This document shows positions 2,732 through 20,134 of a DNA stretch of 24,000 nt, piece after piece. The position numbers and the translations under genes are program-made. The first letter of the stretch is position 1; each line of letters begins with the position of its first letter. Source of the DNA: Oceanococcaceae bacterium (GTDB lineage: Bacteria > Pseudomonadota > Gammaproteobacteria > Nevskiales > Oceanococcaceae); the NCBI GenBank assembly GCA_041603255.1, contig JBFIER010000011.1:53611-77610 (forward strand), in the 5' to 3' direction. The notes under the pieces were generated by a model. The model was not told where the DNA came from. It saw only the letters and a list, made by a program, of their open reading frames with translations, and made no database searches.

Positions 2732-2735
2732 CGAC

Positions 2736-4130
2736 TTAGACGCGCCCGAGCCGCTGCAGCGCTTGCTGGGTCAGATAACGCTCGTACATATCCGGGTCGT
2801 TCGGGCCGCTGAAGTGTTCACCTTCCAGTTCGCGTACCTGCTCCATGCGGGTGACCTTGCCGGTCTGGATATCCGAAGCGATGACCTGCGTCCAGCTCCA
2901 GTACGGGTGTTTGCCATCCATGACCGTCTTGTCACCGGCTTCGTACAGCGAATACGCACCGTCAAAGGAGCGATAGGGTTCGCCGCGGCGGTCGTAGGTG
3001 ACCATGCCGATCAGCGTCTGATTGCGGGCATCAAACCACAACCGCTTCTTGGAAACCGGAGCGCGCGGAAAGCCGGTGGGCTCGCATTCGATGACGATGG
3101 CTTCGGGCACCAGTTCGACTACGGTGTCCCAGAAGCTGTCGTCTTTCTCGCCACCGTGGGTGTTGTGTTCCCAGTTGTCGTGTTCGGCGTGGAAGTTGCC
3201 GGACAGCCCCGCCAGGAACGGCCCGCGTCCCACGATCTTGAAATTCCCCCAGGTGTTGAGCGGATCGCCGGCACCCCAGGCATCCGACAGATACAGCGTC
3301 GTCTTCGGCAACAGGGGCTCGAAACGCTGGCTGGTGGGGAACTGGCGGATGCGGCGGAATTCGGGAACGTAGCCGTACAGCAGCGGGAAGGTGTTCTGAT
3401 CGTAGTCCCAGATGTTCAGGAACGACGTGCCCCGAAAGTTGTACGGCTCCAGGAAGAACACCGATTGAAAGCGCAGCTTGTCCTTGTGTTCCTCCCAGTA
3501 GGGTTTGGGGTCCATGGAGACACGCGCAACGGTGTTCAGCTCGGCCCAGCCACCGGTGTATTCGAAGCTCACGGAACCGTCCGCTTCGATGTTGGAAATC
3601 TTGACCGCGTAGAAAGACGCGTCGTGTCGGCCCCAGCTCAGAACCTGGGCGGCATACAGTTCGATCGCCTTTTGCGGGTCGGGGAAGGGATTGCCGCCGA
3701 TCCACGGCTGACCGTCCAGCGTCACCACATTGCCGCTGTCATCGAACTTGGCCTGGCCCGCGTTGCGCAGTGTCGCTTCCACGTACTCCCACGGCGACAG
3801 GCGGTAGGGGTCGGTGGTGGTCGGGGCGATTTTGAGCTTGCGGCCCTGATTCAGGATCTGCTCATAGCGAATGGGCTCGAGCAGATCTTTGACATGCTCC
3901 ACGTTGGCTGCGGTGATCTCATCACCGGTGCTGATCTTGCCCTTGGTGTAGCCCTCGATGGACAGCAGCTCGTCCGGATAAGCCGACGAGATGTCGCCTT
4001 TGTCCTTGATGGCGGCCCACAACGGGCTGATCACCCCCGTGGCCAGCACACCCAGGCCGGCATCCCGTAAGAATTTGCGGCGGCTGTAGTTCGAATCGTA
4101 TCGGCGAATATGCATTGTGTTTGCTGGCAT
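2736..4130 (-). CDS. DUF1329-family (LolA-like fold) periplasmic protein, paralog 1 (464 aa)
   Basis: Full-length ORF, roughly half identical by eye to the ORF at 15379-16767. Examples: YTKGKISTGDEI / YTKGKISTGDII, FRRIRQFPTSQRFEPL / FRRVRQFPTNQRFEPL, and both C-termini end QQALQRLG. The N-terminus carries SRRKFL plus a hydrophobic stretch. An alternative start is the ATG at 4115 (MHIRRYDSNY, matching the paralog's MNIRKYDFNY). Confidence 0.8.
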   Translation of the reverse strand: MPANTMHIRRYDSNYSRRKFLRDAGLGVLATGVISPLWAAIKDKGDISSAYPDELLSIEGYTKGKISTGDEITAANVEHVKDLLEPIRYEQILNQGRKLKIAPTTTDPYRLSPWEYVEATLRNAGQAKFDDSGNVVTLDGQPWIGGNPFPDPQKAIELYAAQVLSWGRHDASFYAVKISNIEADGSVSFEYTGGWAELNTVARVSMDPKPYWEEHKDKLRFQSVFFLEPYNFRGTSFLNIWDYDQNTFPLLYGYVPEFRRIRQFPTSQRFEPLLPKTTLYLSDAWGAGDPLNTWGNFKIVGRGPFLAGLSGNFHAEHDNWEHNTHGGEKDDSFWDTVVELVPEAIVIECEPTGFPRAPVSKKRLWFDARNQTLIGMVTYDRRGEPYRSFDGAYSLYEAGDKTVMDGKHPYWSWTQVIASDIQTGKVTRMEQVRELEGEHFSGPNDPDMYERYLTQQALQRLGRV

Positions 4131-4312
4131 CCTGCAGCGAGTCTCCCGGGCGAATCATGCCCGAGCTTCGGTGAGGGTGCCCCTATCTTCCGTTAGGGGG
4201 CTCTGACGGAATCCAAGGTGACGGTTTCCTTGGTGGCGCTCCTGAGCCAGCGCCGGCGGCAAAGACAGCGGTCCCTTGCACTCGTCACAGGGCTTCCGCG
4301 CCATGGACGGCG

Positions 4313-4361
4313 CCTGCACTTCTCCGCGCCGTCCGTGGCGCGGAGACCCTGCGCCGGAACC
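4313..4361. repeat. 49-nt perfect direct repeat, copy 1
   Basis: CCTGCACTTCTCCGCGCCGTCCGTGGCGCGGAGACCCTGCGCCGGAACC, identical to 4416-4464 (offset 103 nt). It contains a 10-bp stem with a 6-nt loop. Confidence 0.9.
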
Positions 4362-4370
4362 ACTCCAAAA

Positions 4371-4480
4371 GGCCCGGGAGAGCCGGGGTTCCACCGCAGG
4401 GACGTCTGACCGGCTCCTGCACTTCTCCGCGCCGTCCGTGGCGCGGAGACCCTGCGCCGGAACCCCGGCTCTCCCGGGCC
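4371..4480. repeat. Perfect 20-nt inverted repeat pair enclosing direct-repeat copy 2
   Basis: GGCCCGGGAGAGCCGGGGTT (4371-4390) is the exact reverse complement of AACCCCGGCTCTCCCGGGCC (4461-4480). Together they could form a 20-bp stem around a 70-nt loop that itself contains a 10-bp hairpin. Confidence 0.85.
4416..4464. repeat. 49-nt perfect direct repeat, copy 2
   Basis: Identical to 4313-4361 on base-by-base reading. Confidence 0.9.
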
Positions 4481-4506
4481 GTCAGCAATGGCCAGTTCGG
4501 GTTCCA

Positions 4507-5376
4507 TCAGAGGTTTCTTGGAGGCTGGGAAGGGAGGGTGGTGAGCGGTAGAGGCTTCGTTTCCGTTTCGCAGGATGTCTCCAGGGCCGAGCGCAACAGA
4601 TCCGTGGTGTCGGGCAGCCAGCGATAGTGACCCGCATCGGCCTCGCAGTATCGAAGGCTGCCGTCGCAGCCGTTGTAAGTCATGCAGCCATTGGGGGTGA
4701 CACGCACGCTGCTGCAACCCATGCATTGGGCCCAGCCTTCGGCAGCGGAACTTCCGTAGCCGGGGAACAGGCTGTCCCGGCGTCCGTGGTACAGGGTGAC
4801 GTGGATGCCGGTCGGGCATTGAAACTCTGCAAAGTCCGCCTGCCGCAGGCCGGCGCCGCTGGCCACGATGGCTTTGGGCCGGAGTGGCTGCTCGTAGGGC
4901 AGCAGTGCCAGCAACTGCGCCACGCTGCCCCCGTCTGAGTGCCCGGTGAACGTGACTCTCTGTGGGTCCACACACCAGTGCTGCTGGATGCGCTTCACCT
5001 GCTCGGCCAGCCGTGGGATGGCGGTCGGGCTCAACCGCACGCTGCTGATATAGGCCACGATGATGCCGCGGCCGGTGGCCGCATGCGTCAAACCGACCCA
5101 GCGTTCGGTCAGATGGCTGTTGGCGCCGGCGGGACTGAACACCACCAAAAGCGGATGAGCGCGGGTAGGCTGATAGTTGCTGGGGGTGCGCACATGGAAG
5201 GCGGGCAGTGCGGGGTCCGCGGGCAGGGGGGCGGTGTTGGCGGCACACGCAGCCACGCTGGCGGCAGGGTAATCATAGGCCGCGGGTCTGATGGCCTCCC
5301 CCCAATGGAGCTGGGTCGCCAGCAGGGCAAAAGGAAGCGCCAGGATCACCGCCCAGAGGGCAAACTGTCGCATCAT
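4507..5376 (-). CDS. Secreted alpha/beta-hydrolase esterase, LpqC / PHB-depolymerase-like
   Basis: GHSDGG nucleophile elbow (GxSxG) in VTFTGHSDGGSVAQ, preceded by HPLLVVFSPAGANSH (oxyanion-region-like). The C-terminus is Cys-rich (QCPTG..., CMGCSS..., NGCMTYNGCDGSLRYCE), as in LpqC-type esterases. The start is moved to MMRQFALWAVILALPFALLATQ (ATG at 5376 or 5373), which gives a clean signal peptide. The track ORF start at 5463 would overlap the divergent MerR gene. Confidence 0.65.
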   Translation of the reverse strand: MMRQFALWAVILALPFALLATQLHWGEAIRPAAYDYPAASVAACAANTAPLPADPALPAFHVRTPSNYQPTRAHPLLVVFSPAGANSHLTERWVGLTHAATGRGIIVAYISSVRLSPTAIPRLAEQVKRIQQHWCVDPQRVTFTGHSDGGSVAQLLALLPYEQPLRPKAIVASGAGLRQADFAEFQCPTGIHVTLYHGRRDSLFPGYGSSAAEGWAQCMGCSSVRVTPNGCMTYNGCDGSLRYCEADAGHYRWLPDTTDLLRSALETSCETETKPLPLTTLPSQPPRNL

Positions 5377-5447: not shown

Positions 5448-6191
5448 ATGAGCAAAATGACAAAAAAAACGCGCCCGCGAACCAGCCAGACCGAGCGGCC
5501 GGCGCCGTACAAAATGAAGCAGGTCGAGGAGATGACCGGTGTGTCGCGGGAGACCGTTCGGTTCTACATCAGCGAAGGCCTGTTGCCCCCGCCGGTGAAG
5601 TCCGCCCGCAACATGGCCTGGTACTCGGACCGCCATGTCGAATTGCTGCGTCTGATCTCGCGTTTGCAGAACGAACAGTTTTTGCCGCTGCGCGCCATTC
5701 GTTCGCTGGTGCACGGCACCGAAGACATCAGTTTTACTCCCCAGCAGGAGGCGGTGCTCGATGAAATTCGCCAGGAACTGAGCGGGGTCGACGTGCTGCA
5801 CCATGCGGCGAATGAGGAATCCATCGGTGATTGCCCGGAGGGTTTCAGTGGCTGCGAGTGCGAGGAGTTGCGTCAGTTGGGTGAACTGTCGGGGGAGAAC
5901 GACAGCGCGCTGGAAAATGACCTGCGCCGGATCTGGGCGCGTTTGCGGCAGAACGGTTTGACCGAGGAACGGGGTTTCAGTCCGGCCAACCTCGAGTTTC
6001 TGTCCGAACTGGCCAAACTCGCCGTGCAGGAGGAACTGCGGCTGTTTGGCGAAAAGATCGTCCAGATGTCCGAGGGCGAAGCCAAGCGTTTGTCCCATGA
6101 AGTCATCCCCGCGTTGAACGATGTATTCAGTCTCCTCCACAAGCAGCGCCTGACGTTGGCCATCAAAAATCTGCTTGAAGAGCGCAAGTAG
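5448..6191 (+). CDS. MerR-family transcriptional regulator with a long C-terminal domain containing a C-x6-C-x-C cluster
   Basis: MerR-type winged HTH: YKMKQVEEMTGVSRETVRFYISEGLLPPPVKSARNMAWYSDRHVELLRLISRLQNEQFLPLRAIRSLV. Cys129/Cys136/Cys138 (GDCPEGFSGCECEE, nt 5832-5861). The start is uncertain: ATG 5448, 5457 or 5514, and none has a strong Shine-Dalgarno. Confidence 0.8.
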   Translation: MSKMTKKTRPRTSQTERPAPYKMKQVEEMTGVSRETVRFYISEGLLPPPVKSARNMAWYSDRHVELLRLISRLQNEQFLPLRAIRSLVHGTEDISFTPQQEAVLDEIRQELSGVDVLHHAANEESIGDCPEGFSGCECEELRQLGELSGENDSALENDLRRIWARLRQNGLTEERGFSPANLEFLSELAKLAVQEELRLFGEKIVQMSEGEAKRLSHEVIPALNDVFSLLHKQRLTLAIKNLLEERK

Positions 6192-6234: not shown

Positions 6235-6267
6235 TTGACACAATTTGCAACATCATGCCAGCATAGT
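6235..6267 (+). promoter_or_regulatory. Candidate sigma70-type promoter upstream of the monooxygenase operon (perfect -35, over-long spacer)
   Basis: TTGACA at 6235-6240. The best -10-like hexamers are CAGCAT (18-nt spacer) and CATAGT (6262-6267, 21-nt spacer, 4/6 match to TATAAT). No experimental support; motif reading only. Confidence 0.25.
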
Positions 6268-6304
6268 TTCGCGCCCATTACGGGCCGTTGCTCGAGGAGA
6301 TCAC

Positions 6305-7114
6305 ATGAGTAAGCAAATTGAGATGGGTGCCGGCGCTGTCGACACTCCGCGTGCACCCTGGCGTGCCATCTTTCTGGCGTTGGCCGGGATTGCCGTCGTT
6401 TTCGGCTTGTATCGCGTTTATCAGCATCAAACCGCCTTTACCTTCGGCCTGGACTATTTCAGCGATGACTTCCAGAAGTACTGGATGACCGTGCTGTACG
6501 TCGAGCTGACGGTCATTCCGTTGCTGGGCGCTGCGATCGTCGGTTATCTGTGGAAGACCCGTGACCGTCATCTGGACCAGCTCAAGCCGGTGGATGAACT
6601 GGGTCGTTACATGAAACTGGTGGGCATGCTGCTGCTGTTCGTAACGGTGTTCTACCTGACCGGTTCGATCTACGCCGAATCCGATGCCGCCTGGCACCAG
6701 GTGACCGTGCGTGATACCGATTTCACCCCCACCCATATCGGCTTGTTCTACTTCGCGGTTCCGACCCTGATCGTGCTGGGTGTGAGCAGCTTCATGTACG
6801 CACGAACCCGCTTGCCGCAGTTTGCCGAGCGGGTCTCCCTGCCGTTTGCCATCGCGGTGGCCGGCCCGATCATGATCATGCCGAACCTCGGTTTCAACGA
6901 ATGGGGCCACACGTTTTTCTACGCTGAAGAGCTGTTTGCCGCACCGATTCACTGGGGCTTCGTGCTGCTGGGCTGGGCGGTGTTCGCTGCCGCCGGGCTG
7001 CTGGTGCAGGTGCTGACCCGCATCATCGCGCTGACCAAGCAAATGAACGATGACGCCGCTGCCGCCGTGCAGCCGGTGTTGAGGCAGGATCAGGCGGTCG
7101 CCAAGGCCGCCTGA
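6305..7114 (+). CDS. pmoC: Copper membrane monooxygenase subunit C (PmoC/AmoC family)
   Basis: Hallmark motifs are SDAAWHQVTVRDTDFTPTH and GFNEWGHTFFYAEELFAAPIHWGFVLLGW. These conserve the D-x3-H-x12-H (D127/H131/H144) and N-x3-H-x13-H (N198/H202/H216) ligand sets described for the PmoC CuC and CuD sites. The start is moved to ATG 6305 (MSKQIEMG), preceded by a GAGGAG Shine-Dalgarno. The track's TTG at 6245 lacks one. Confidence 0.9.
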   Translation: MSKQIEMGAGAVDTPRAPWRAIFLALAGIAVVFGLYRVYQHQTAFTFGLDYFSDDFQKYWMTVLYVELTVIPLLGAAIVGYLWKTRDRHLDQLKPVDELGRYMKLVGMLLLFVTVFYLTGSIYAESDAAWHQVTVRDTDFTPTHIGLFYFAVPTLIVLGVSSFMYARTRLPQFAERVSLPFAIAVAGPIMIMPNLGFNEWGHTFFYAEELFAAPIHWGFVLLGWAVFAAAGLLVQVLTRIIALTKQMNDDAAAAVQPVLRQDQAVAKAA

Positions 7115-7176: not shown

Positions 7177-7923
7177 ATGGCTATCTCAGCATCTGCCACG
7201 CAGGCGGAGAAGGATGCGCATCGCATCAATGTTCAGTTCGATACGCTCATCATTCCATTGGTGGTGCTGGTGTTCGCTGCGGTTTTCAGCTTTCACTTCG
7301 CGCTGTTGGTGGGGGATTGGGACTACTGGATCGACTGGCGTGACCGCCGTTGGTGGCCGCTGGTTACGCCGTTGGCCATTACTGTCATCCCGGCGGTATT
7401 CGGCTACTTTCTCTGGGAGCGTTTGCGCCTCCCGCTGGCGGCGACGCTGTCTTTTCTCGCCTTGGGTGTGGCTGCCTGGATCAGCCGCTATCTGAACTTT
7501 CACCTGTTCGCGAACTTCCCGATGAACATGGTGTGGCCCTCCACCTTCATCGGCCTGGGCTTGATCATCGACTGCGTGCTGTTGCTGACACGGAGCTGGT
7601 TCTGGACCGGCCTGTTCGGCGCCTTCGCCGTCGGCTTGCTGATCTATCCGCTCAACTGGCCGCTGCTCGCGCCCTTTCAGGTGCCGGTGGAAATTCACGG
7701 CACGATGCTGACCGTGGCCGACCTGATGGGCTTTGAATACGTGCGTACCGCGATACCGGAATACGTGCGCATTATCGAGGAGTCCACGTTGCGAACCTTC
7801 GGGGAGGCGGTCACGCCATTGACAGCCGTCTTTGCCGGCTTCCTCAACATCATGAATTACTGGCTGTGGGTATGGGTCGGGTATCTCGCTGCGAAGGCCA
7901 TCTGGCTGCGTCGTATCGTCTGA
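7177..7923 (+). CDS. pmoA: Copper membrane monooxygenase subunit A (PmoA/AmoA family)
   Basis: GDWDYWIDWRDRRWWP, NFPMNMVWPSTF, ADLMGFEYVRTAIPEYVRIIEESTLRTFG. These closely parallel the PmoA/AmoA signatures GDWDFWVDWKDRRMWP and [36 protein letters not shown] Shine-Dalgarno upstream. Confidence 0.9.
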   Translation: MAISASATQAEKDAHRINVQFDTLIIPLVVLVFAAVFSFHFALLVGDWDYWIDWRDRRWWPLVTPLAITVIPAVFGYFLWERLRLPLAATLSFLALGVAAWISRYLNFHLFANFPMNMVWPSTFIGLGLIIDCVLLLTRSWFWTGLFGAFAVGLLIYPLNWPLLAPFQVPVEIHGTMLTVADLMGFEYVRTAIPEYVRIIEESTLRTFGEAVTPLTAVFAGFLNIMNYWLWVWVGYLAAKAIWLRRIV

Positions 7924-7941: not shown

Positions 7942-9168
7942 ATGCACAAATCAATTATGTGGGCGCTGGTTGCTCTGCTCGGGCTGTGGCTTCCGGTACA
8001 GGAGGCATGGGCGCACGGTGAGCGGGCGCAGATGCCGCAGCTCCGGATGCGCACGGTTCACTGGATGGATGTGGCCCTGTCACATTCCAAAATCGATGTG
8101 AACGATACGGTCAAGATCACCGGCAGCTTCATTCCGTCGGAGTACTGGCCGGATCACGTGGCCAGCATCGAGGATGTGGCCTTTCTCAATATCGGTGTCC
8201 CGGGGCCGTCTTTCGTGCGCCTGGATTCGCGGGTCAACGGGGTGCCGATGATCCGTTCCACCGGGTTCGAGAAAGGCAAGCTCTATCACTTCGAAGTGTT
8301 GCTCAAGGCCCGCAAGGCCGGCCGTGTGCACGTGCACCCGGTCATCAACGTCAAGGACACCGGCCCGATTATCGGCCCGGGCTTGTGGCTGGAAGTAAAC
8401 GAGGGCGCAGTGCCGTTCGAGAACACGGCCACCACCCTTTTGGGCAAGACCATCGACCTGGAAACCTACGGGTTTGCGAATGCGGCCATGTGGTCGGCAT
8501 TGTGGGGAGTGATCGGTCTGGCCTGGTTCGTGTACTGGCTGATGAAGTGTCCCATCGTCATTCCGCGGTTCAAACGCGCCGCCGAATTGGGCAAGGATGC
8601 GGATGAAATGATCACGCCAACGGATCGCAAGGTGGGCGCGGTGTTCCTGTCGCTGACCTTGCTGGTGATGCTCGGCGGGTACAAATACGCCAACGAGCGT
8701 TGGCCGATCACGACCCCGCTGCAAACCGGACGGATCAAAACACCGGGCCTGGAAGCCTACGACGGCACCGTCAAGGCGGATCTGGTCAGCGCGCGCTACC
8801 GCATTCCGGGCCGCAGTTTCCGGATGGAAATGGAAGTCACGAACAACGGCAGTTCGCCGCTGCGGGTGGGCGAATTTGCCGCCGGCGGTTTGCGCTTCAT
8901 CAATGCCGAGGTGCTTCAGGTGGCGCCCCGGGATGCGGATGACCTCATCGCTCCGGATGCGCTGCGTGTGGACGGCGGCGCGATTCCCGCCGGTGAAACC
9001 CGCACCATCGTGGTCTACGCTGATGACGCGATGTGGGAAACTCAGCGGATGACCACGATGATCGCGTCACCCGACGCCATCGTCGCTGGCATGCTGTTTT
9101 TCTTCGATGCTGAAGGCCGTCGCTACCCGCTGGAAATTGGCGGGACCATGATTCCGGAATTTGTCTGA
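7942..9168 (+). CDS. pmoB: Copper membrane monooxygenase subunit B (PmoB/AmoB family)
   Basis: A signal peptide ending AWA exposes an N-terminal His (H25, nt 8014-8016) in HGERAQMPQLRMRTVHWMD. The GRVHVHPVINV motif (H130/H132) completes the CuB-type His-brace ligand set. Two central TM helices (AAMWSALWGVIGLAWFVYWLM and VGAVFLSLTLLVMLGGY) separate two soluble domains, as in PmoB. Confidence 0.9.
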   Translation: MHKSIMWALVALLGLWLPVQEAWAHGERAQMPQLRMRTVHWMDVALSHSKIDVNDTVKITGSFIPSEYWPDHVASIEDVAFLNIGVPGPSFVRLDSRVNGVPMIRSTGFEKGKLYHFEVLLKARKAGRVHVHPVINVKDTGPIIGPGLWLEVNEGAVPFENTATTLLGKTIDLETYGFANAAMWSALWGVIGLAWFVYWLMKCPIVIPRFKRAAELGKDADEMITPTDRKVGAVFLSLTLLVMLGGYKYANERWPITTPLQTGRIKTPGLEAYDGTVKADLVSARYRIPGRSFRMEMEVTNNGSSPLRVGEFAAGGLRFINAEVLQVAPRDADDLIAPDALRVDGGAIPAGETRTIVVYADDAMWETQRMTTMIASPDAIVAGMLFFFDAEGRRYPLEIGGTMIPEFV

Positions 9169-9764
9169 TGAAGTTGTTGTCTGCACTGCTTCTGCTGTTT
9201 CTCGCCGTGGGCGTGGCCACCGAAGTCTCCGCTCACGGTGGGGTCTCGGTGGAAGACGATGCCTGTGTCATGCGCATTGGTCCGTATCGGGCGCATTTCA
9301 CGGGCTACCAACCCGAGCTGCGGGCAACCCAGGAATTCTGCGAAGACATTCCGGAAACGGCCTCGGCCATCATCGTGCTGGACTTCATCGATGGCGAGCT
9401 GCGCGATCAGGAAATGGCCTTCTACCTGTTGCGCGATGACAAGGGCATTGGCAAAACTGCGACCTTCAAGGATCTCGGGTCGATGGACGCGGTGCGTTCA
9501 GACTGCATCCTGTGCGTGGAGCCCAAGAAGTATCCTCGTGGCACAATCACGCTGGACTACCCTTTCACCGAAGGAGGCTGGTACATCGGCGTGCTGGAGG
9601 CGCGAAATCCGGAAACGGGCGAGACCATCCATTCGGTGTTTCCCTTCCAGGTTGGCGTGCGTCACTACTGGGGTTTTGTCATCGCAGGCCTGATCGTGGT
9701 GGCGCTCTCGGTGTTGCTCTACCGCGTTACCGGAAGAAACCTTGCGAGTAAAAACACGGCTTGA
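9168..9764 (+). CDS. Membrane-anchored periplasmic protein of unknown function in the PmoD/AmoD syntenic position (candidate copper protein)
   Basis: The ATG overlaps the pmoB stop (TGATG). A signal peptide ending VSA exposes His23 (HGGVSVEDDAC). There are four Cys, including C113-x2-C116 (SDCILCVEP, nt 9504-9515). A single C-terminal TM helix (HYWGFVIAGLIVVALSVLLYRV) follows. The architecture (signal peptide, about 140-aa periplasmic domain, one C-terminal TM) and the position between xmoB and copC match PmoD/AmoD/AmoE. I cannot confirm homology by eye. Confidence 0.45.
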   Translation: MKLLSALLLLFLAVGVATEVSAHGGVSVEDDACVMRIGPYRAHFTGYQPELRATQEFCEDIPETASAIIVLDFIDGELRDQEMAFYLLRDDKGIGKTATFKDLGSMDAVRSDCILCVEPKKYPRGTITLDYPFTEGGWYIGVLEARNPETGETIHSVFPFQVGVRHYWGFVIAGLIVVALSVLLYRVTGRNLASKNTA

Positions 9765-10156
9765 ATGACATGCGAGTACCCACCCGCTGGCACCATATTC
9801 TCACGACACTTGCGCTGACCCTGATCTCCGGGGCCGTTTGCGCACATGCCGCGCTGGTTCGCTCCGTTCCCGGCACGCGTGCCGTACTGCAGGGTTCGCC
9901 AACGCAAATCGAGCTGTGGTTCAACGAGGCGGTCGAGGAGTCGTTTTCGACGATCACGCTGGTGGCCCCGGGCGATGTCGAGGTGCAGCTGGGAAAACCC
10001 CATGTGGATTCCAGTGATCCCTACCGTCTGGCCGTGGATCTGCCCGCGCTGAGTCCGGGGCGCTATACCGTTCGCTATCGCGTGCTGTCCAAAGATGGGC
10101 ACCTGGTGGAATACGGATACCAGTTCGTGTTGGAGTCTGCGCCCGAACGCCCGTGA
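9761..10156 (+). CDS. copC: CopC-family periplasmic copper-binding protein (Cu(II)-site-only type)
   Basis: A signal peptide ending VCA exposes HAALVRSVPG (the N-terminal His of the CopC Cu(II) site). VRYRVLSKDGHLVEYGYQF is the CopC C-terminal signature (DGH). The mature protein has no Met, so the Met-rich Cu(I) site is absent. The start is either TTG 9761, overlapping the upstream stop, or ATG 9770. Confidence 0.85.
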   Translation: MNDMRVPTRWHHILTTLALTLISGAVCAHAALVRSVPGTRAVLQGSPTQIELWFNEAVEESFSTITLVAPGDVEVQLGKPHVDSSDPYRLAVDLPALSPGRYTVRYRVLSKDGHLVEYGYQFVLESAPERP

Positions 10157-12159
10157 TCGAATCTCTCGGCGTTGCAGGGCGCATGGTGTTCCTGCTGGGC
10201 GCACTGGGAGCAGTGGGCAGCGCCGGTTTCCTGCTTTTAGCTCCCGCGGCATCCGCACCGGCTTCTGCGGTGAGCGCCTGGCGCCTGATGTGGTTCTGGC
10301 GGTTGGGGTTTTTCCCGTTGCTGATCGGGCTGGGCCTGGCGCTGCAATTGCTGGCGCAGGCACTGAACCTCATGGGGCCGGAACTCGCCAAGGCCTTGCA
10401 TCCCGAAGTACTCGAGCCGCTGCTGCGACGAACCAATTTCGGTTGGGTCTGGAGCGCCCGGCTCGCTGCGATGTTCCTGCTGGTCTTGTTCTGGGCGGGC
10501 ACGCTGGGCATGAAGCGCGGGGATCGCCGGTACAGCGCCGCTCCGGTACTGGTGCTGGCAGCGCTGGCCGCCATGATCGGCCCTTTTGCCGGGCATAGTT
10601 CCGGCGCCGAATCACCCCCTTTGATGATGAGCCTGAATGCGCTGCACATCCTCGCGGCGGGGCTGTGGGCGGGTGCGCTGCCGTGCTGGGTAAGCTGGGC
10701 ACGCCTGAATCGGGTGCAGGCTGCCGCGCCCAATGCCATCGATACGGTGCGGCGATTTTCAACCCTTGCTGCCGGGTGCGTGGTGATCCTGCTGCTCAGC
10801 GGCGTGTGGCTTGCGGATGAGTTCGTTGAACACCTCGGTGATTTGCTCGGGACCCGTTATGGCCTGCTGATCGTCGTCAAGGTTGGGTTTTTTGCTGCGG
10901 CGCTGCTGTTGGCCAATCGCATACGTCACCGGCTGCTGGAAATGCCGAAAGGGGGCGGTGCGGGCCACTCGGGCTTTTTCGCCGGTGTCGTTATGTCGGC
11001 GCGGGGTGAGCTATTGGCGGTGCTGCTGGTGGTCATCGCTGCGGGTGCGTTGGCGCAGACTACGCCGGCGATTCACGATCAGCCGGTCTGGTTCCTGCCG
11101 TTTCGGGTATCCCCCGAAGCCGCCTGGGATGCCTGGCCGGAAGCCTTGTACGGTGGCCTTTATGGCCTGCTGGCTTTGCTGGCTCTGGGGCTCTGGGGGG
11201 GCGGCCGGGTCTGGAAGAAACCGCTGCCGACGCCACTTGCGTGGGGATTGCTGCCGACCGTACTGGTGGGGGGCAGCGGGGCGTTGTACTGGTTCTCCGT
11301 TCCCGCTTACCCGGATACCTATCGGCGTTCGGATGTGCCGTATCTGGCAGCGTCCGTGGTCCAGGGACAGTTGCTGTTCGAGCAGCACTGCGTCTCCTGC
11401 CATGGCAGCGGTGGGTTGGGAGATGGCAAGCAGGCCGCCTATCTGCCGGTGCCACCGGCCGACCTGAGCGAACCCCATACATCGCTGCATACGGCCGGCG
11501 ACATGTACTGGTGGTTCACGCATGGTATTCCCCAGAGCGGTATGCCCGGTTTCGCCGGCAAGCTGAGTGAGCAGGATCGCTGGGATCTGGTCAATTTCCT
11601 GCGGGCCTTCTCGCGTGGGTTCGAGGCCCGTGTATTGCGCGATGTGATCGTGCCGCGCGACCCCTGGCTGGGGGCGCCCAATTTCTACTTCGACAGCCCG
11701 GCCGGGTTTTCCGAGCTGAAGGCGTTGCGGGAGACCCACACCGCACTGCTGGTGTTCGCGGATTATGCGAATCCGCAGAGCCAGGAGCGCCTGGCGGCAC
11801 TGGATCGTGCGCAGCCTCGACTGCAGCAGGCCGGTTTGCGGATTTTGGTGGTGCCGATCAACCCGGAGCTGCCCGAGCCGGCGTTGCCCGCGCTGCAAAT
11901 TGTGCGCAACGAGGCGCGGCCGATCTGGGCGACCTACAGCCTGTTGTCACGCAGCCTGGCTGATCGGGGTGACGATGACGCGCTGGGGGTGCAGCGTACG
12001 CATGTGGAATTTCTGGTCGACCGGTTTGGTTATCTGCGGGCGCGATGGATACCCGGAGAGTCCAGCGGTTGGACAGATATCGAGCGTTTGCTGACTCAGG
12101 TAAATGCCTTGATGACGGAACCGGAAATCGAGCCGCCGCCTGACGACCACGTGCATTAA
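10153..12159 (+). CDS. copD: CopD-family membrane protein fused to a mono-heme c-type cytochrome and a Cys-less thioredoxin/redoxin-like C-terminal domain (668 aa)
   Basis: The GTG start overlaps the copC stop (GTGA). The N-terminal ~300 aa are polytopic with CopD-like FAGHSSGAE and LHILAAGLWAGALP. More TM helices extend to about aa 395. CVSCHGSGGLGDG (C413-x2-C416-H417, nt 11389-11403) plus a downstream GMPGF give a class I cytochrome c. From about aa 500-650, TALLVFADYANPQSQERL...GLRILVVPINPE...HVEFLVDRFGYLRARW looks like an AhpC/TSA/redoxin fold, but ANPQS (nt 11767-11781) sits where CxxC is expected. Confidence 0.8.
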   Translation: MIESLGVAGRMVFLLGALGAVGSAGFLLLAPAASAPASAVSAWRLMWFWRLGFFPLLIGLGLALQLLAQALNLMGPELAKALHPEVLEPLLRRTNFGWVWSARLAAMFLLVLFWAGTLGMKRGDRRYSAAPVLVLAALAAMIGPFAGHSSGAESPPLMMSLNALHILAAGLWAGALPCWVSWARLNRVQAAAPNAIDTVRRFSTLAAGCVVILLLSGVWLADEFVEHLGDLLGTRYGLLIVVKVGFFAAALLLANRIRHRLLEMPKGGGAGHSGFFAGVVMSARGELLAVLLVVIAAGALAQTTPAIHDQPVWFLPFRVSPEAAWDAWPEALYGGLYGLLALLALGLWGGGRVWKKPLPTPLAWGLLPTVLVGGSGALYWFSVPAYPDTYRRSDVPYLAASVVQGQLLFEQHCVSCHGSGGLGDGKQAAYLPVPPADLSEPHTSLHTAGDMYWWFTHGIPQSGMPGFAGKLSEQDRWDLVNFLRAFSRGFEARVLRDVIVPRDPWLGAPNFYFDSPAGFSELKALRETHTALLVFADYANPQSQERLAALDRAQPRLQQAGLRILVVPINPELPEPALPALQIVRNEARPIWATYSLLSRSLADRGDDDALGVQRTHVEFLVDRFGYLRARWIPGESSGWTDIERLLTQVNALMTEPEIEPPPDDHVH

Positions 12160-12184: not shown

Positions 12185-12679
12185 ATGTTCAATACCAAAC
12201 TTCCCCGGGTTTCGGCGCTGGCCGCCTGCATGACGCTGGCCGTGACGGCCTTCACCGCTATTGCCAATGACAAAAACGATGCCCACAGCATGCACGAGGG
12301 GCACATGATGCACGCTGGTGATGCGTCCATGAAAAAGAACGCCGGCAGTTATCCGGAATTGAAGATCCTGCTGCCGCAGGACGGCGCGACCGTCAGCTCG
12401 CAATTGGCCGTGGTGTTTTCAACGCCGGGACATATGGCGGATCTCACCATGGGCGCGCCGACACCGGGCGTCCACCTGCATATTGATACCCAGGATGTGT
12501 CGTTGATGCCGACGATGCAGCAGCTGGTCTCCCTGGGCGGCGGCAACTATCTGTTTCTGTTTGATCTGCCGGTCAAGCCGGGCGCGCACAAGATCAACGT
12601 GTACTGGTCCGATGCGCAGCACAAGACCATTCAGGAGTCGGTGCGCTCCATCACCGTCACGGTGCCAGCAAAGCGGTGA
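12185..12679 (+). CDS. Periplasmic His/Met-rich protein with a DUF4399-like beta-sandwich domain (candidate copper-binding protein)
   Basis: GAGGA Shine-Dalgarno and a signal peptide ending AIA. A HSMHEGHMMHAGDASM tract (nt 12284-12331) resembles periplasmic Cu(I) Met/His motifs. The body (ELKILLPQDGATVSS..., GVHLHIDTQD..., GAHKINVYWSD...ITVTV) resembles my recollection of DUF4399 (GHHHLLID..., GxHxL...). Confidence 0.55.
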   Translation: MFNTKLPRVSALAACMTLAVTAFTAIANDKNDAHSMHEGHMMHAGDASMKKNAGSYPELKILLPQDGATVSSQLAVVFSTPGHMADLTMGAPTPGVHLHIDTQDVSLMPTMQQLVSLGGGNYLFLFDLPVKPGAHKINVYWSDAQHKTIQESVRSITVTVPAKR

Positions 12680-12847: not shown

Positions 12848-15352
12848 TTGAGCAGTACGCAATCAAATACCGGCGCGGGTCCAGGGCTGGACTCCATACG
12901 CTTCAAGGTTGCTGCATGGGTCATGCGGCAGCGAAAAGCCATGTTGGTGTTTTTCGCCCTGGTGACTTTGGGGTTTGCCGCGGGTCTGCCCGGCCTGACC
13001 ATCAAAACCATCTTTTCCGATCTGCTGCCGGCAGACGATCCCTTTGTTCAGGTCTATCAGGACCACCGCAACTTCGGTAATCCGTTGTCTGTGGTGGTCA
13101 TGATCAAGAACAAGAAAGGCGATATCTACAACCACGACACCTTGAGCAAGGTGTGGAACCTGACCCGGGACATCGACCTGGTTCCCGGCATCGACCACAA
13201 CACCTTGATCTCGATCGCGACGGAAAAAGCCCGCTACGCCGAGGCCACGCCTTATGGCGTGGACATGCGGCCGATCATGGAGGACAAGGTTCCGACCGAC
13301 CCCACCGAGATCGCGGATTTCCACCGCCGGGTTGAGCAAAGCCCGAACGTCCGGACCTTCTATGTGTCCGGCGACCAGACGGCAACGCTGATCACCGCAG
13401 CCTTCCTGGAAAACCTGCTGGATTACGGCGTGGTGTTCCAGGGTGTGCAGGACCTGGCCGAGAAGTATCGCGACAAGAACCACGAGATCTACGTGGTGGG
13501 GCAGCCGATTCTGACGGGTTGGGTGTACAAGCTGCAGAAGCAGACCTACATGATCTTCGCGATTACGCTGGGCGCGCTGGCCATCGCGTTGGCGCTGTAC
13601 ATGCGCAACATCGCCGGGACGCTCACGCCGATTATCTGTAGTTCGGTTGCCGCCATCTGGGGCTTCGGTCTGGTCGGCTGGATCAGCTCGCCGATTGAAC
13701 CGCTGCTGATGATCGTGCCGTTGCTGTTGATCGCGCGATCGTTCTCGCACTGCGTGCAGTTCTCCGAACGCTTCTACGAGATCTACTCCGAAATCGGTGA
13801 CAAGCGGAAGTCCGCAGAGATCACGATGGCCGCCATGATGGCGCCGTCGATTCTGGGTGTGATCACCGACGCGCTGGGGATTTTCTTCATCGCGCTGGCG
13901 CCGATCCCGGCCATGGAACGCTTCGCGCTGTTCTGCGGCTTCTGGGCGCTTTGCATCATCCCGACCGGCGTTTTCCTGATCTCCATTCTGCTGTCCTATC
14001 TACCGGATCCCGGCAACATCGAAGATCTGGTTTCGCACAATGACACCGGGTTCCACGCCTTCCAGAAGCGCGTGCTGCAGAAGGTCGCCGCGCTGTGCTA
14101 CGGCCGGCTCGCCAAGTACACCACCATCGCGACGCTGGTCGTGGCGGTGGGGGCGGTGTATCTGGCATCGCAGATCAAGATCGGCAACCCGGTCGAAGGC
14201 TCCAACCTGCTCTGGGAGGATTCGGACTTCAACACGGCGATCCGGGCGGTGAATGCCCACTTCCCGGGTGTGAACACGCTGGAGATCGTGCTCGAAGCCA
14301 AGGAGCGCGAGATCACCAACCGGATTGCCCGGACTCCGGATGCGGTTGCCGCATCGCTGCAGCTGCAGGCGCTGGTCGAGGCCGACCCGATCATGCCGCC
14401 CCGGGCCACTTTGTCCTTCAGTGACTACATGATGGAGGGCAACCGCTTGTTCTCCGGGGGTGACCCCAAGTGGTATCCGCTGGACCCGACGCGTTCATCG
14501 GTGGCTGCGGCCAGCAACGCGGTGACTTTCGGTACCGACCCGGTCAACTTCGCCCATATCACCGACTTCGAGTTCCAGAACTCCACGGTGTCGTTGTGGT
14601 ACGCGGACAACAAGCAGGAAACCGTGGACGCGGCGCTGGCCAGTGCGCGGCGTGCGGTCGAGATCGTGGGTGAAGACCACCCCACGTTCCGCATCCGTCT
14701 GGCGACCGGCAATATCGCTCTGCAGCAGGCCATGAACCTGGTGGTGCACCGCTATCACTGGCTGATTCTGGGCATGTTGAACTGTGCGATCTTCCTGATC
14801 TGCTGGTATGCGTACCGGTCCATGGTGGCGGCCATCATCGTGTTGATCCCGGTGAACCTGTCGAACTTCCTGCTGACGGCAACCATGCACGTCATGGGAA
14901 TTGGTCTGGACATCAACTCGGTCATGGTGGCGGTGCTGGGTGTGGGCGTGGGTATCGACTACGGGATCTACCTGCTCTCGCGTATTTGCGAGGAGTACAC
15001 CGCGAATGACCAAGACTGGACCTGTGCCATTCGGGAATCCCTGACCACCACCGGGAAGGCAATTCTGTTTACCGCAACCATCATGCTCATCGGCATCCTG
15101 CCGTGGTACCTGCTTTCCGACCTGAAGTTCATGGCGGATATGGGGCTGCTGCTGGTGGCCATCATGCTGATCAACATGGTGTTGGCGCTGGTGGTGCTGC
15201 CACTGCTGATCTGGCTGATCAAACCGAAGTTTGCTGCTCGTGATGACCTGATGGTTGGTGAGAGCATCGACTTGTCCCAATTCAAGACTGCCAGTTCGAA
15301 TGAGGGTGACAAAGGTGGGATGCCACCTCTGGCCGCGCAATCACCCGCCTAA
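12848..15352 (+). CDS. RND-superfamily (MMPL/HAE3-like) inner-membrane transporter, paralog 2 (834 aa)
   Basis: Full-length ORF with TTG start and a GAGGGGA Shine-Dalgarno upstream. Same architecture as 362-2731 and colinear with it. It has an extra C-terminal hydrophilic tail. Confidence 0.85.
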   Translation: MSSTQSNTGAGPGLDSIRFKVAAWVMRQRKAMLVFFALVTLGFAAGLPGLTIKTIFSDLLPADDPFVQVYQDHRNFGNPLSVVVMIKNKKGDIYNHDTLSKVWNLTRDIDLVPGIDHNTLISIATEKARYAEATPYGVDMRPIMEDKVPTDPTEIADFHRRVEQSPNVRTFYVSGDQTATLITAAFLENLLDYGVVFQGVQDLAEKYRDKNHEIYVVGQPILTGWVYKLQKQTYMIFAITLGALAIALALYMRNIAGTLTPIICSSVAAIWGFGLVGWISSPIEPLLMIVPLLLIARSFSHCVQFSERFYEIYSEIGDKRKSAEITMAAMMAPSILGVITDALGIFFIALAPIPAMERFALFCGFWALCIIPTGVFLISILLSYLPDPGNIEDLVSHNDTGFHAFQKRVLQKVAALCYGRLAKYTTIATLVVAVGAVYLASQIKIGNPVEGSNLLWEDSDFNTAIRAVNAHFPGVNTLEIVLEAKEREITNRIARTPDAVAASLQLQALVEADPIMPPRATLSFSDYMMEGNRLFSGGDPKWYPLDPTRSSVAAASNAVTFGTDPVNFAHITDFEFQNSTVSLWYADNKQETVDAALASARRAVEIVGEDHPTFRIRLATGNIALQQAMNLVVHRYHWLILGMLNCAIFLICWYAYRSMVAAIIVLIPVNLSNFLLTATMHVMGIGLDINSVMVAVLGVGVGIDYGIYLLSRICEEYTANDQDWTCAIRESLTTTGKAILFTATIMLIGILPWYLLSDLKFMADMGLLLVAIMLINMVLALVVLPLLIWLIKPKFAARDDLMVGESIDLSQFKTASSNEGDKGGMPPLAAQSPA

Positions 15353-15378
15353 CGTATTACTCACGAGGAGACACAACC

Positions 15379-16767
15379 ATGAATATCCGTAAGTACGACT
15401 TCAATTACGGCCGTCGGAAACTGATGGAAAACACCGCACTCGGACTGGGTGCGGGGGTTTTGATGCCGCTGGCCGACGTGTTCGCGGCTGAAGGTGACAT
15501 CAGCAAGGCTTACCCGGAAGAGCATCTGTCGATTGAGATGTACACCAAGGGCAAGATCAGCACCGGTGACATCATCGATGCCAGCAATGTCGACCTGATC
15601 AAAGAACTGTTTGACCCCAGCATCTACGACCAGATCAAGAACCTCGGTCGCAAGATCAAGATTCGTAAGACCACCACCGATTTCTCGAAGATGTTCCCCA
15701 ACGACTTCTACGAGTTGACGCTGCGCAACGTCGGTAATGGCGTCAAGGCACAGTGGGATGCCAAGGGTAATGTTCGCTCTCCCGATGGCTCGCCCTGGGT
15801 GGGCGGCCTGCCGTTCCCTGACCCGAAAACCGGTGACGAAGTGCAGGCCAACCTGGCGATGAGCTGGGGGCGGGGCAACTACTGTCAGTACGCGGTCAAC
15901 GACAGCGTATTCAACAACGGTAAACAGGCCTACAGCTATGACCTGGTCTGGGCCGAGTTGCAGATGGCCGGGCGTCCGGACGGCAAGATCTTCATGGACC
16001 GGGATGATCTGGTTCGTTTGCAGACCGTGCTGTTCACCGCTACCCAGGACGTCGCGGGCAGCTCCTTCCTCTCGATTTGGTACTACGACCAGTCCAAGTT
16101 CCCGGATCTTTACGGTTACCTGCCGCAGTTCCGCCGGGTGCGTCAGTTCCCGACCAACCAGCGTTTCGAGCCGCTGATTCCGGGCGTGACCTGGTTCCTT
16201 TCCGACCCCTGGGGCGCCGGTGACCCGATGCGCACCTGGAGCGAGTACAAGATCGTCGAGCGCAAACCGATGCTGGGGCCGTTCAACACGAACTTCGTCG
16301 GCACCAATAACTGGAACACCACCACTCACGGCGGTGAAAGCGGCGAGCTGTTCTTCGATACCGAATATGAGCTGGCTCCGGAAGTCGTGACGCTGGAGTC
16401 GAAGCCGACGGGTTATCCGCGGGCGCCGGTCGGTCATCGCCACTGCTACGTCGATACGCGTATGTGTCTGGCCGGCTCGTCGATCCGCTATGACCGTCAG
16501 GGCAAGATGTGGGTTAATTTCGAGGCCGGTTACGGTCAGCAAATCGACCCGGTCAACAACATCGAGATCAAGGGTCCGGACGGCAAGAGCACGGCCTGGT
16601 CCTGGATGTACGTGCTGTCTTATGACCACCAGAACCAGCGCATGAGCCGTGCCCGTCACCTGGAAGAGTGTGCCGGCGGCTACCAAAGTCAGCTGGGCGG
16701 TGACGATGAACTCGCGTACGACACCTTCTTCACCCAGCAGGCCCTGCAGCGCCTGGGGCAGGTTTAA
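15379..16767 (+). CDS. DUF1329-family (LolA-like fold) periplasmic protein, paralog 2 (462 aa)
   Basis: GAGGAG Shine-Dalgarno. The N-terminus has GRRKLM followed by a hydrophobic stretch ending FAAEG. Colinear with 2736-4130. Confidence 0.8.
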   Translation: MNIRKYDFNYGRRKLMENTALGLGAGVLMPLADVFAAEGDISKAYPEEHLSIEMYTKGKISTGDIIDASNVDLIKELFDPSIYDQIKNLGRKIKIRKTTTDFSKMFPNDFYELTLRNVGNGVKAQWDAKGNVRSPDGSPWVGGLPFPDPKTGDEVQANLAMSWGRGNYCQYAVNDSVFNNGKQAYSYDLVWAELQMAGRPDGKIFMDRDDLVRLQTVLFTATQDVAGSSFLSIWYYDQSKFPDLYGYLPQFRRVRQFPTNQRFEPLIPGVTWFLSDPWGAGDPMRTWSEYKIVERKPMLGPFNTNFVGTNNWNTTTHGGESGELFFDTEYELAPEVVTLESKPTGYPRAPVGHRHCYVDTRMCLAGSSIRYDRQGKMWVNFEAGYGQQIDPVNNIEIKGPDGKSTAWSWMYVLSYDHQNQRMSRARHLEECAGGYQSQLGGDDELAYDTFFTQQALQRLGQV

Positions 16768-17798
16768 TGCGTAACGGTACGTTTGGTCGAGGGCAGCGTG
16801 TTGCTGCCCTCATAGCCTTCGCCGCCATCGTTCACCCGGCATGGGCAGAGTCCAAGGACGACGCTGTGCATATCCACTCGGCAGAGAGTGAACTGGTGCG
16901 CGTGGGGACTCCGCATGCCGCGCTGTTTGACGTCAGCGCCTATGGCAGTCGTCTGTTCACCGTGGGTGCAGCTGGCCAGATCCTGCGCAGCGATGATGGC
17001 GGGAAGCAGTGGGAACCCGAGTTGGCGCCCAGCCCCGCGGCTTACCTCGGGGTGTCAAACGCCGGTGATTACGCCGTTGCGGTGGGCCAGATGGGAATCG
17101 TCGCTTACCGCAACCTTCAAGGCGAATGGGCCGTTGCCGAAAGCAACACGACGGAGCGTCTGTTCGATGTTTCCATCAACGCCCGCGGAGTCGGTGTGGC
17201 TGTGGGAGCGTTTGGCGCCCTGATCCGTACCTCCGATGGTGGCAAGACGTGGGTGGAGGCTGCGCCTTCCTGGAAAGGGGTGTTCCGGGACGGGGCCGGT
17301 CGTTTGGGTGAGTTTTTCACCCCCAGTCTTTACACCGTCCAAACCTCAGAAAGCGGCAAAGTCTGGGTTGGCGGGGAGCTGGCTCTGATCATGACCTCGG
17401 AGGATGGTGGTGTGAGCTGGACCATTCGCAATGCGGGTGGCAACGATGAAGAGGGAATCGAGCCGACGATCTCCGCGATTGACGTGCGCTCGGATGGTGT
17501 TGGGTATGCCGTGGGGCAGGAGGGGTTCATCCTGCGTACGGAAAACGCCGGAGCGACCTGGGCTTCACTACCCAGACCCACCAAATCCAATCTGCTTGGC
17601 GTTGCCAGCAAGCGGGATGGGACCGTTGTTCTCAGCGGGATGCGTGACATGCGTATCAGCCGAGACGACGGGCGCACCTTCAATCCGGTCTACGGGAACG
17701 GGATTGAAACGGGGTGGTTTCATGGGGTCGTCGCCGTTGATGGAGCACATGCGCTCACCGTGGGTATCGCTGGGAAGGTACTCCGGGTCATCAATTAA
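16767..17798 (+). CDS. BNR-repeat / Ycf48-like beta-propeller periplasmic protein
   Basis: The ATG overlaps the upstream stop (TAATG). Signal peptide ends AWAESK. Repeated SxDxGxxW-type BNR motifs: RSDDGGKQW, TSDGGKTW, TSEDGGVSW, TENAGATW, SRDDGRTF. Confidence 0.8.
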   Translation: MRNGTFGRGQRVAALIAFAAIVHPAWAESKDDAVHIHSAESELVRVGTPHAALFDVSAYGSRLFTVGAAGQILRSDDGGKQWEPELAPSPAAYLGVSNAGDYAVAVGQMGIVAYRNLQGEWAVAESNTTERLFDVSINARGVGVAVGAFGALIRTSDGGKTWVEAAPSWKGVFRDGAGRLGEFFTPSLYTVQTSESGKVWVGGELALIMTSEDGGVSWTIRNAGGNDEEGIEPTISAIDVRSDGVGYAVGQEGFILRTENAGATWASLPRPTKSNLLGVASKRDGTVVLSGMRDMRISRDDGRTFNPVYGNGIETGWFHGVVAVDGAHALTVGIAGKVLRVIN

Positions 17799-17842
17799 AC
17801 AATTCCGCGCATAGAGGCAGCGGTATACACAGGGAAGAGACA

Positions 17843-20011: not shown

Positions 20012-20024
20012 CACTTCCCCCAAT

Positions 20025-20071
20025 CTCACCCACGTCAATGCCTTACGGGCGGCGTGGGTGAGTATTTGCTT
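20025..20071 (+). terminator. Putative intrinsic terminator downstream of the DUF1302 gene
   Basis: CTCACCCACG (20025-20034) pairs with CGTGGGTGAG (20053-20062): a 10-bp stem with an 18-nt loop, followed by the T-rich TATTTGCTT. The loop is long, so confidence is moderate. Confidence 0.4.
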
Positions 20072-20134
20072 GTGGCGCGGCTCGCCGTCCCACGGGTGAA
20101 CTTTGAGTATCGGATTGATAGAGAGGAGAACCTC

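Follow-up and report, generated by a model that had tools for sequence, protein, structure and literature searches.

How copper is chosen, reduced and inserted for the ammonia, methane and hydrocarbon monooxygenases is still an open question. One gene in a 24,000-nucleotide stretch of DNA from an uncultured Oceanococcaceae bacterium (contig JBFIER010000011.1; GC content about 61%; the whole stretch is called the window here) raises this question in a concrete form, namely what a heme and a thioredoxin-like fold are doing at the end of a copper permease. It is near certain that the gene belongs to an extended copper-membrane-monooxygenase (CuMMO) operon, xmoCAB-pmoD-copC-copD, and encodes its copper permease, an inner-membrane protein of the CopD family. 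It is a further member of a widespread CopD subfamily, already noted in print, which travels with copper membrane monooxygenases. Regarding its function we tentatively favour the view, at somewhat less than an even chance, that the heme reduces CopC-delivered Cu(II) to Cu(I) at the CopD entry, with the thioredoxin-like domain acting as a scaffold or in hand-off.

A preliminary description of the locus had read the chain as a CopD domain, a mono-heme cytochrome c and a thioredoxin-like domain, and all three assignments were borne out by Pfam, profile searches and AlphaFold2/Foldseek. The open reading frame (ORF) is initiated by GTG and runs through 668 codons with zero internal stops. A frameshift or an assembly fusion of separate genes, which the same description had set as a check, can be ruled out: 79 complete genes from other genomes share the length and the domain order. 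The closest relative (P0001, from a metagenome-assembled genome) is 95% identical to the window protein and lies in identical synteny. The start codon shares the tetranucleotide GTGA with the stop codon of copC (10153-10156), which suggests translational coupling of the two genes. Upstream, the xmoB stop and the start of the pmoD-like ORF share base 9168, and the latter ORF ends at 9764, a few bases before copC, whose true start is likely the ATG at 9770 (an alternative TTG at 9761 overlaps the pmoD-like ORF). As judged from the sequence, these tight junctions (9161-10160) suggest that the coupling extends through the copper-handling genes.

The three-domain family is large. A word-seeded search returned 268 relatives, nearly all of 640-680 amino acids with the same Pfam pair, from hosts including Sinimarinibacterium, Panacagrimonas, Stagnimonas, Nevskia and Bradyrhizobium; one of them carries the JGI label 'copper export protein/mono/diheme cytochrome c family protein/peroxiredoxin', and the routine JGI label 'copper export protein/cytochrome c/peroxiredoxin' came up among cluster members. 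When a profile of the third domain was run exhaustively with HMMER, 497 representatives of clusters at 50% identity were found, 306 of them at E<=1e-10, and in these this domain always lies at the extreme C-terminus. From a scan of one genome per species we obtained 190 relatives and kept 80 loci for comparison, which also cover Nitrosomonas, other Nitrosomonadaceae, comammox Nitrospira, Solimonas, Polycyclovorans, Aquabacterium and Xanthobacteraceae. The conservation alignment comprises 80 sequences, the window protein and 79 complete genes from these loci. Over the full length, identity to the Nitrosomonas, Nitrospira, Bradyrhizobium and Nevskiales proteins is 33-48%.

The fusion had been called unusual in the preliminary description, and this did not hold. 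What it represents is the usual copD gene of extended amo/pmo/xmo operons, those of Nitrosomonas and comammox Nitrospira among them, and its architecture has been printed (PMC11923076). That study, from 2025 and on the E. coli CopD homologue YebZ, devotes a single sentence to the subgroup: it makes up about 4% of CopDs, among them that of Methylosinus trichosporium OB3b. In the published wording, the third domain 'resembles Sco1'. The three-part architecture is already in print, without a functional proposal. In the nitrifier literature the gene is simply named copD (e.g. PMC13374858), and a search of the literature for Nitrosomonas europaea locus tags found nothing. The present gene brings no new architecture; its contribution is a set of residues, namely CxxCH, M464, H442/H446, H148/H165, H308 and the terminal HxH. 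New here are the family-wide absence of CxxC, the invariant terminal [H/M]-x-His and the copper-linked relative of the cytochrome; a literature search of partial coverage found no papers that treat the absent cysteines or the motif at the C-terminus. What the gene offers is a hypothesis open to sharp tests, together with a defined list of residues, and not a new type of system.

The permease part matches Pfam CopD (PF05425) over residues 198-300 with 51.3 bits, above the gathering score of 32.1. The NCBIfam model copper_CopD (NF033808) aligns with residues 6-305 at 75.7 bits, below its equivalog cutoff of 195, which marks the permease as a divergent CopD; by sequence it belongs to a divergent subfamily and not to the classical CopDs of resistance operons. 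His148 and His165 occur in every sequence of both alignments (31/31 and 80/80). They correspond to H135 and H154 of YebZ, where mutation abolished or reduced copper uptake (PMC11923076). This strict conservation argues that the permease itself is functional. At least 97% conserved in the CopD core and the following loop are H148, H165, K243, E286 and H308.

The full-length AlphaFold2 model, built from a 31-sequence alignment (predicted local distance difference test, pLDDT, 82.6; predicted template modelling score, pTM, 0.70), contains ten long helices up to residue 381, corresponding to the 8-helix CopD core plus a hairpin (330-353 and 360-381). They are followed by a helical domain (399-494), a beta-alpha-beta domain (512-655) and disordered residues 660-668. 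Loops rich in lysine and arginine (121-128, KRGDRR; 181-201; 255-278; 350-362, RVWKKP) alternate with acidic or neutral ones. Helix count and loop-charge alternation, following the positive-inside rule, place both termini in the periplasm, with the extra hairpin predicted to bring the chain back to that side. Hence His148/His165, the H308 loop, the cytochrome and the third domain are all predicted to be periplasmic, as the preliminary description had supposed for the last two, and the periplasmic part would consist of the C-terminal 285 residues. The cytochrome domain comes after a predicted in-to-out helix. Heme attachment is a process of the periplasmic side, and this placement agrees with it.

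The cytochrome domain is matched by Pfam Cytochrom_C over residues 403-484 (54 bits; cutoff 21.3). Exactly one CxxCH motif is present in the protein (C413-V-S-C416-H417), and its two cysteines, together with C178 and C209 in membrane helices, are the only four cysteines among the 668 residues. All 80 aligned sequences have C413, C416, H417, Met464, H442 and H446. CxxCH and a distal axial ligand are the hallmarks of class I c-type cytochromes; the sequence has both, and covalent heme is predicted. Among solved proteins, the nearest in sequence is cytochrome c552 of Thioalkalivibrio paradoxus (E 3e-18, 42% identity; Foldseek template modelling score 0.76, root-mean-square deviation 1.7 A). In the alignment H442 corresponds to His83 and Met464 to Met103. 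In c552 the heme is ligated axially by the histidine of CxxCH and by Met103, which lies in a PMPGF loop; His83 is hydrogen-bonded to heme propionate-7, and electrons are proposed to pass through it to the trinuclear copper centre of thiocyanate dehydrogenase (PMC9456337). The suggestion that the methionine of GMPGF is the axial ligand is therefore well supported by the alignment. Moreover, the nearest characterised relative of the heme domain is a cytochrome that exchanges electrons with copper. We also considered H442, H446 and M451 as a dedicated His2Met copper site, and downgraded this candidate: the same histidines occur in the soluble c552, where His83 contacts the heme propionate.

For the third domain, residues 488-668 of the window protein alone gave no Pfam match. 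A profile of 24 homologous C-termini, compared with PDB sequences, found ResA (E 2.9e-4), the AhpE and BCP peroxiredoxins and TlpA; AhpC-TSA (PF00578) was weakly matched by 17 of the 24 homologues (best E 5.5e-7) and SCO1-SenC by one. An AlphaFold2 model of the domain (pLDDT 85, pTM 0.85) was matched by Foldseek to DsbE (3gl3; E 2.3e-8, template modelling score 0.73) and also to ResA, TlpA, peroxiredoxins and BsSco; in all, 566 PDB chains reached E<=1e-3. Both the structural matches and the ResA profile match indicate a thioredoxin fold with an N-terminal hairpin. In this model, the redoxin-like strings quoted in the preliminary description form strands (530-536, 562-568 and 617-632).

In the alignment with ResA, the window sequence LLVFADYANPQSQERL lies over FLNFWGTWCEPCKKEF, and N540 and S543 stand at the positions of the two cysteines. 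The earlier observation that ANPQS replaces CxxC is confirmed in that N540-P-Q-S543 falls over C-E-P-C of ResA. No cysteine occupies the CxxC-equivalent position in any of the 80 family sequences, so the active site of TlpA, ResA, DsbE and CcmG is missing. Likewise, the peroxidatic cysteine of peroxiredoxins (PxxxT/SxxC) is absent from the 80 sequences, and instead of the CxxxC and distal histidine of Sco1/SenC they have no conserved cysteine or histidine within the domain. Since no active-site cysteine is found in any of the 80 sequences, thiol chemistry of the TlpA/ResA reductase, peroxiredoxin or Sco kind can be excluded for the whole family. The statement that the domain has 'lost its cysteines' is right only for the family as a whole: members retaining CxxC, which would represent an ancestral state, were seen neither among the 80 aligned sequences nor among 18 further representatives. 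The loop at the CxxC-equivalent position varies in sequence and length among the 80 sequences, the nitrifier versions reading LVLFS-WPESRxRL. At least 97% conserved in the domain are R526, R546, R600, D623, R624, R629, R631 and W632. A genuine stand-alone form was not seen in the representative search; matches of 160-390 amino acids that looked like one are gene fragments starting at an internal methionine (MPGFA...) or in the middle of a helix.

The invariant histidines of the third part lie only in the C-terminal tail. The terminal residue H668 is histidine in 80/80 sequences, all of which end in ...P-P-P-D-x-[H/M]-x-H, and position 666 (-2) is histidine or, in some Nitrosomonadaceae, methionine. 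Histidine and methionine are both copper ligands. The exchange of one copper-ligand residue for another supports, at the level of sequence, a metal-binding role of the tail, which is disordered in both AlphaFold2 models (pLDDT 27 in the full-length one). It is a reasonable inference that the third domain has a binding or scaffold role and that the tail may serve as a mobile metal-binding element. At four Nitrosomonadaceae loci (L049, L055, L065, L082) the copD homologue ends in ...DDMVH and not in ...DDHVH.

In the window, the gene order is MerR regulator, xmoC, xmoA, xmoB, PmoD homologue, copC, copD and a gene for a 164-residue secreted protein (orf164). With xmoCAB, pmoD/amoD, copC and copD on one strand, this is an 'extended' pmo/amo operon as described by Fisher et al. 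2018 (PMC6189053). When the window proteins were compared with the 80 loci by tblastn, the same order was found almost everywhere. AmoC, AmoA and AmoB lie within 10 kb of copD in 48 of the 53 loci with enough flanking DNA, which answers the survey that the preliminary description had called for. The other five (L030, L047, L048, L054 and L073; one from Bradyrhizobium manausense and four from Nitrosomonas) have no amoCAB in the 10 kb to each side and still carry copC directly upstream, which shows that the module can exist apart from the monooxygenase genes. copC is upstream in all loci with enough DNA and absent only where less than about 400 nt upstream was available. The constant partner of copD is CopC, not the monooxygenase. 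The CopC of the window has, as had been noted before, a Cu(II) site only.

The preliminary description had already supposed that the cytochrome could set the Cu(II)/Cu(I) state of copper coming from CopC, and such a role is plausible and in line with all our findings. Based on these features, we propose the following sequence of events. The Cu(II)-only CopC would dock at the periplasmic face and offer its copper to the His148/His165 entry site. The tethered heme, held reduced by the periplasmic respiratory electron pool, would give one electron to the copper, probably via the heme-propionate histidine H442. Reduction of Cu(II) to Cu(I) would free the tightly bound copper from CopC and render it transportable. 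The thioredoxin-like domain would carry out no thiol chemistry; it may position the cytochrome over the permease, or dock CopC, PmoD or orf164, or both, with the histidine tail as a mobile copper ligand. The least certain step is the last, in which the copper would come to serve the adjacent monooxygenase, either through the cytoplasm or by being handed over directly.

Counting for this mechanism are the intact transport histidines, the obligatory and probably coupled Cu(II)-only CopC, the predicted periplasmic His/Met heme on the permease, the pairing of the nearest solved cytochrome with a copper centre, and the lack of CxxC in a third domain that otherwise keeps invariant residues and the terminal histidine. 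A study from 2026 states that CopC-CopD importers have no known partner reductase; it notes that the biogenesis of cuproenzymes may call for a localised cupric reductase, CcoG being the sole known example (PMC13344008). With a heme next to the permease in the operons of both nitrifiers and hydrocarbon oxidisers, the present subfamily is the obvious test case for such a CopC-CopD reductase. Several points weigh against heme-driven reduction. A copCD mutant of strain OB3b, whose CopD is reported to have the three-part architecture (PMC11923076), showed no clear phenotype in either copper uptake or the copper switch (PMC7558416). YebZ and other plain 8-helix CopDs do without a heme when importing copper, so reduction is no intrinsic requirement. 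Moreover, the oxidation state carried by CopD is still open (PMC11923076), and electrons could equally flow the other way, in an oxidation of Cu(I). A bolder version, in which the heme domain is the first cupric reductase in a CopC-CopD pathway and the Cys-less thioredoxin fold with its [H/M]-x-His a new hand-off module metallating CuMMOs, appears doubtful to us. If true, this module would serve the ammonia monooxygenase (AMO), the particulate methane monooxygenase (pMMO) and the hydrocarbon monooxygenases alike.

The third domain could also act more directly. As a Sco-like chaperone, the thioredoxin-like domain with its histidine tail would metallate the monooxygenase or PmoD itself, while the heme tunes the copper state and little or no copper passes the membrane. 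The fold is of the Sco/TlpA type, one homologue matches Pfam SCO1-SenC, and the published wording is 'resembles Sco1' (PMC11923076). The invariant terminal histidine, with histidine or methionine at -2, would provide copper ligands, and the missing uptake defect of the OB3b copCD mutant (PMC7558416) would be expected. However, the CxxxC and distal histidine site is absent and the domain holds no conserved cysteine or histidine, the tail is disordered with only putative copper binding, and the transport histidines of CopD are conserved. We regard this chaperone as unlikely. Another explanation, to which we give a still smaller chance, makes the cytochrome an electron wire that feeds respiratory electrons to the copper centre of PmoD or to the CuMMO active site, with CopD mainly an anchor or assembly platform. 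To our knowledge, the physiological reductant of CuMMOs has not been settled, and this speaks for such a wire. So do the position of copD beside xmoCAB and pmoD at the 48 informative loci, the pairing of the nearest solved cytochrome with a copper enzyme, and the ability of PmoD homologues to form a CuA-like site, a classic acceptor of cytochrome c electrons (PMC6189053). A wire to the monooxygenase does not explain why the invariant partner is CopC and not the CuMMO, why five loci keep copC-copD without amoCAB within 10 kb, or why the transport histidines are strictly conserved. Furthermore, gammaproteobacterial pmo/amo operons are described as having no copCD at all (PMC6189053), and the PmoD homologue of the window has C-x7-R-x-H in place of the CuA motif C-x7-M-x-H.

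Alternatively, the heme may work in reverse, oxidising periplasmic Cu(I) to Cu(II) for detoxification and thereby loading CopC, or its redox state may gate the permease according to the respiratory chain. The Cop/Pco systems, which include Cu(I) oxidases, first became known as determinants of resistance (PMC13374858), the CopC found here holds Cu(II) only, and electron flow in either direction would fit the present data. CopC and CopD expressed alone, on the other hand, lead to copper hypersensitivity or uptake and not to resistance (PMC8689200, PMC11923076), and the operon context is that of a copper-requiring enzyme and not of a resistance island. Both the oxidase and the sensor therefore seem quite improbable, and we retain reduction of CopC-delivered copper as the preferred reading.

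Comparison with known systems places the window protein closest to the CopD-cytochrome c-'Sco1/thioredoxin-like' subgroup in the amo operons of ammonia-oxidising betaproteobacteria and comammox Nitrospira, which has the identical three parts in the same slot after xmoCAB-pmoD-copC. The OB3b CopD of the pmo operon falls into this subgroup by its published description. From the subgroup the window gene differs only in its host and enzyme subtype, a CuMMO closest to the Nevskiales enzymes. E. coli YebZ, Pseudomonas CopD and B. subtilis YcnJ share the 8-helix core, the two essential periplasm-facing histidines and the obligatory CopC, but they lack the extra transmembrane hairpin, the heme domain and the thioredoxin-like domain. 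Cytochrome c552 (PDB 7o9u, 9vr0) shares the His/Met mono-heme, the MPGF loop with the axial methionine and the propionate-bonding histidine; it is a free soluble protein with histidine-rich disordered termini, whereas the cytochrome of the window protein is tethered to a permease. TlpA, ResA, DsbE, CcmG, the peroxiredoxins and Sco1 have the fold in common with the third domain, including the N-terminal beta-hairpin and a signal at profile level, but not their CxxC, peroxidatic cysteine or Sco CxxxC/His. In function it would stand nearer to protein disulfide isomerase with its b/b' binding domains, which are likewise Cys-less. The eukaryotic Fre1/STEAP heme reductases upstream of Ctr1, which use heme b and NADPH, show no homology and are alike only in the logic proposed here, a reduction of Cu(II) to Cu(I) beside a transporter. 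The same holds for the bacterial cupric reductase CcoG (PMC13344008), which uses Fe-S clusters on the cytoplasmic side where the window protein has a heme predicted to be periplasmic. The coordinates of all features are given in the table.

Table. Features of the copD gene and its operon, in window coordinates (TM, transmembrane).
Feature	Position	Strand	Evidence or remark
CopD-cytochrome c-thioredoxin-like protein, whole gene	10153..12159	+	668 aa, GTG start
CopD core, residues 1-302, 8 TM helices, predicted periplasmic N-terminus	10153..11058	+	Pfam, NCBIfam, AlphaFold2 helices, K/R-rich loops
His148 to His165, predicted periplasm-facing His pair = YebZ H135/H154	10594..10647	+	conservation
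Predicted periplasmic loop after TM8, residues 303-329, TTPAxHDQPxWxLPFR; invariant H308, W313, R318	11059..11139	+	alignment and model
Extra two-helix TM hairpin, residues 330-381, cytoplasmic loop RVWKKP (predicted)	11140..11295	+	sequence and AlphaFold2 model
Mono-heme class I cytochrome c domain, residues 399-494	11347..11634	+	Pfam; 42% identity to c552 9vr0/7o9u
CVSCH heme-attachment motif (C413, C416, H417)	11389-11403	+	sequence
Codon of axial Met464	11542-11544	+	alignment to c552 Met103
Cysteine-free thioredoxin-fold domain, residues 505-655	11665..12117	+	profile, Pfam of homologues, model, alignment
N540-P-Q-S543 at the CxxC position	11770-11781	+	ResA alignment
Disordered C-terminal tail EPEIEPPPDDHVH-COOH	12121..12156	+	pLDDT 27; conservation
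MerR-family regulator, directly upstream of xmoC	5448-6191	+	kept in the 95%-identical locus L001
xmoC	6245-7114	+	copper membrane monooxygenase
xmoA	7177-7923	+	copper membrane monooxygenase
xmoB	7942-9168	+	copper membrane monooxygenase
PmoD/AmoD homologue, C-terminal membrane anchor, C-x7-R-x-H	9168..9764	+	PDB 6cpd, E 1.1e-10
copC, periplasmic, Cu(II)-only	9761..10156	+	mature N-terminal His, DGH motif, zero Met
orf164, secreted, His/Met-rich N-terminus	12185..12679	+	kept directly downstream in many loci

Some of the neighbouring genes deserve mention. The PmoD homologue differs in one motif position from the CuA-forming PmoDs (C-x7-R-x-H versus C-x7-M-x-H) and may, judging from this motif, be without a CuA-like site. 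The N-terminus of orf164 reads DAHSMHEGHMMHAGDASM, with HHxHH in relatives, and is followed by a beta-rich domain; across 43 sequences T88-M89, H97-L-H99, M108-P109, W141 and H146 are at least 90% conserved. The gene is present in 38 of the 70 loci with downstream DNA, in Nevskiales, Bradyrhizobium and Burkholderiales, and was not found in the nitrifier loci among these 70. No match to orf164 was obtained in PDB sequences, and in Pfam only a sub-threshold one to DUF4399. It may be an undescribed periplasmic copper protein in the slot that PCuAC takes in alphaproteobacterial pmo operons. The MerR regulator could be a metal-responsive (CueR-like) or a substrate-responsive switch of the operon.

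The enzyme itself shows mixed affinities. XmoB passes the NCBIfam cutoff for bacterial AmoB (507 versus 336), while XmoA and XmoC stay under the cutoffs of the AmoA and AmoC models. XmoA shares 70-83% identity with Nevskiales enzymes and only about 40-45% with Nitrosomonas AmoA. On either side of the operon (362-5248 on the minus strand, 12848-21697 on the plus strand) lie sets of RND/MMPL, DUF1329, BNR and DUF1302 genes, and the flanks also hold a MalT/LuxR regulator and an AMP-binding enzyme resembling acyl-CoA synthetases. This flanking context suggests a hydrocarbon rather than ammonia or methane as the substrate of the enzyme.

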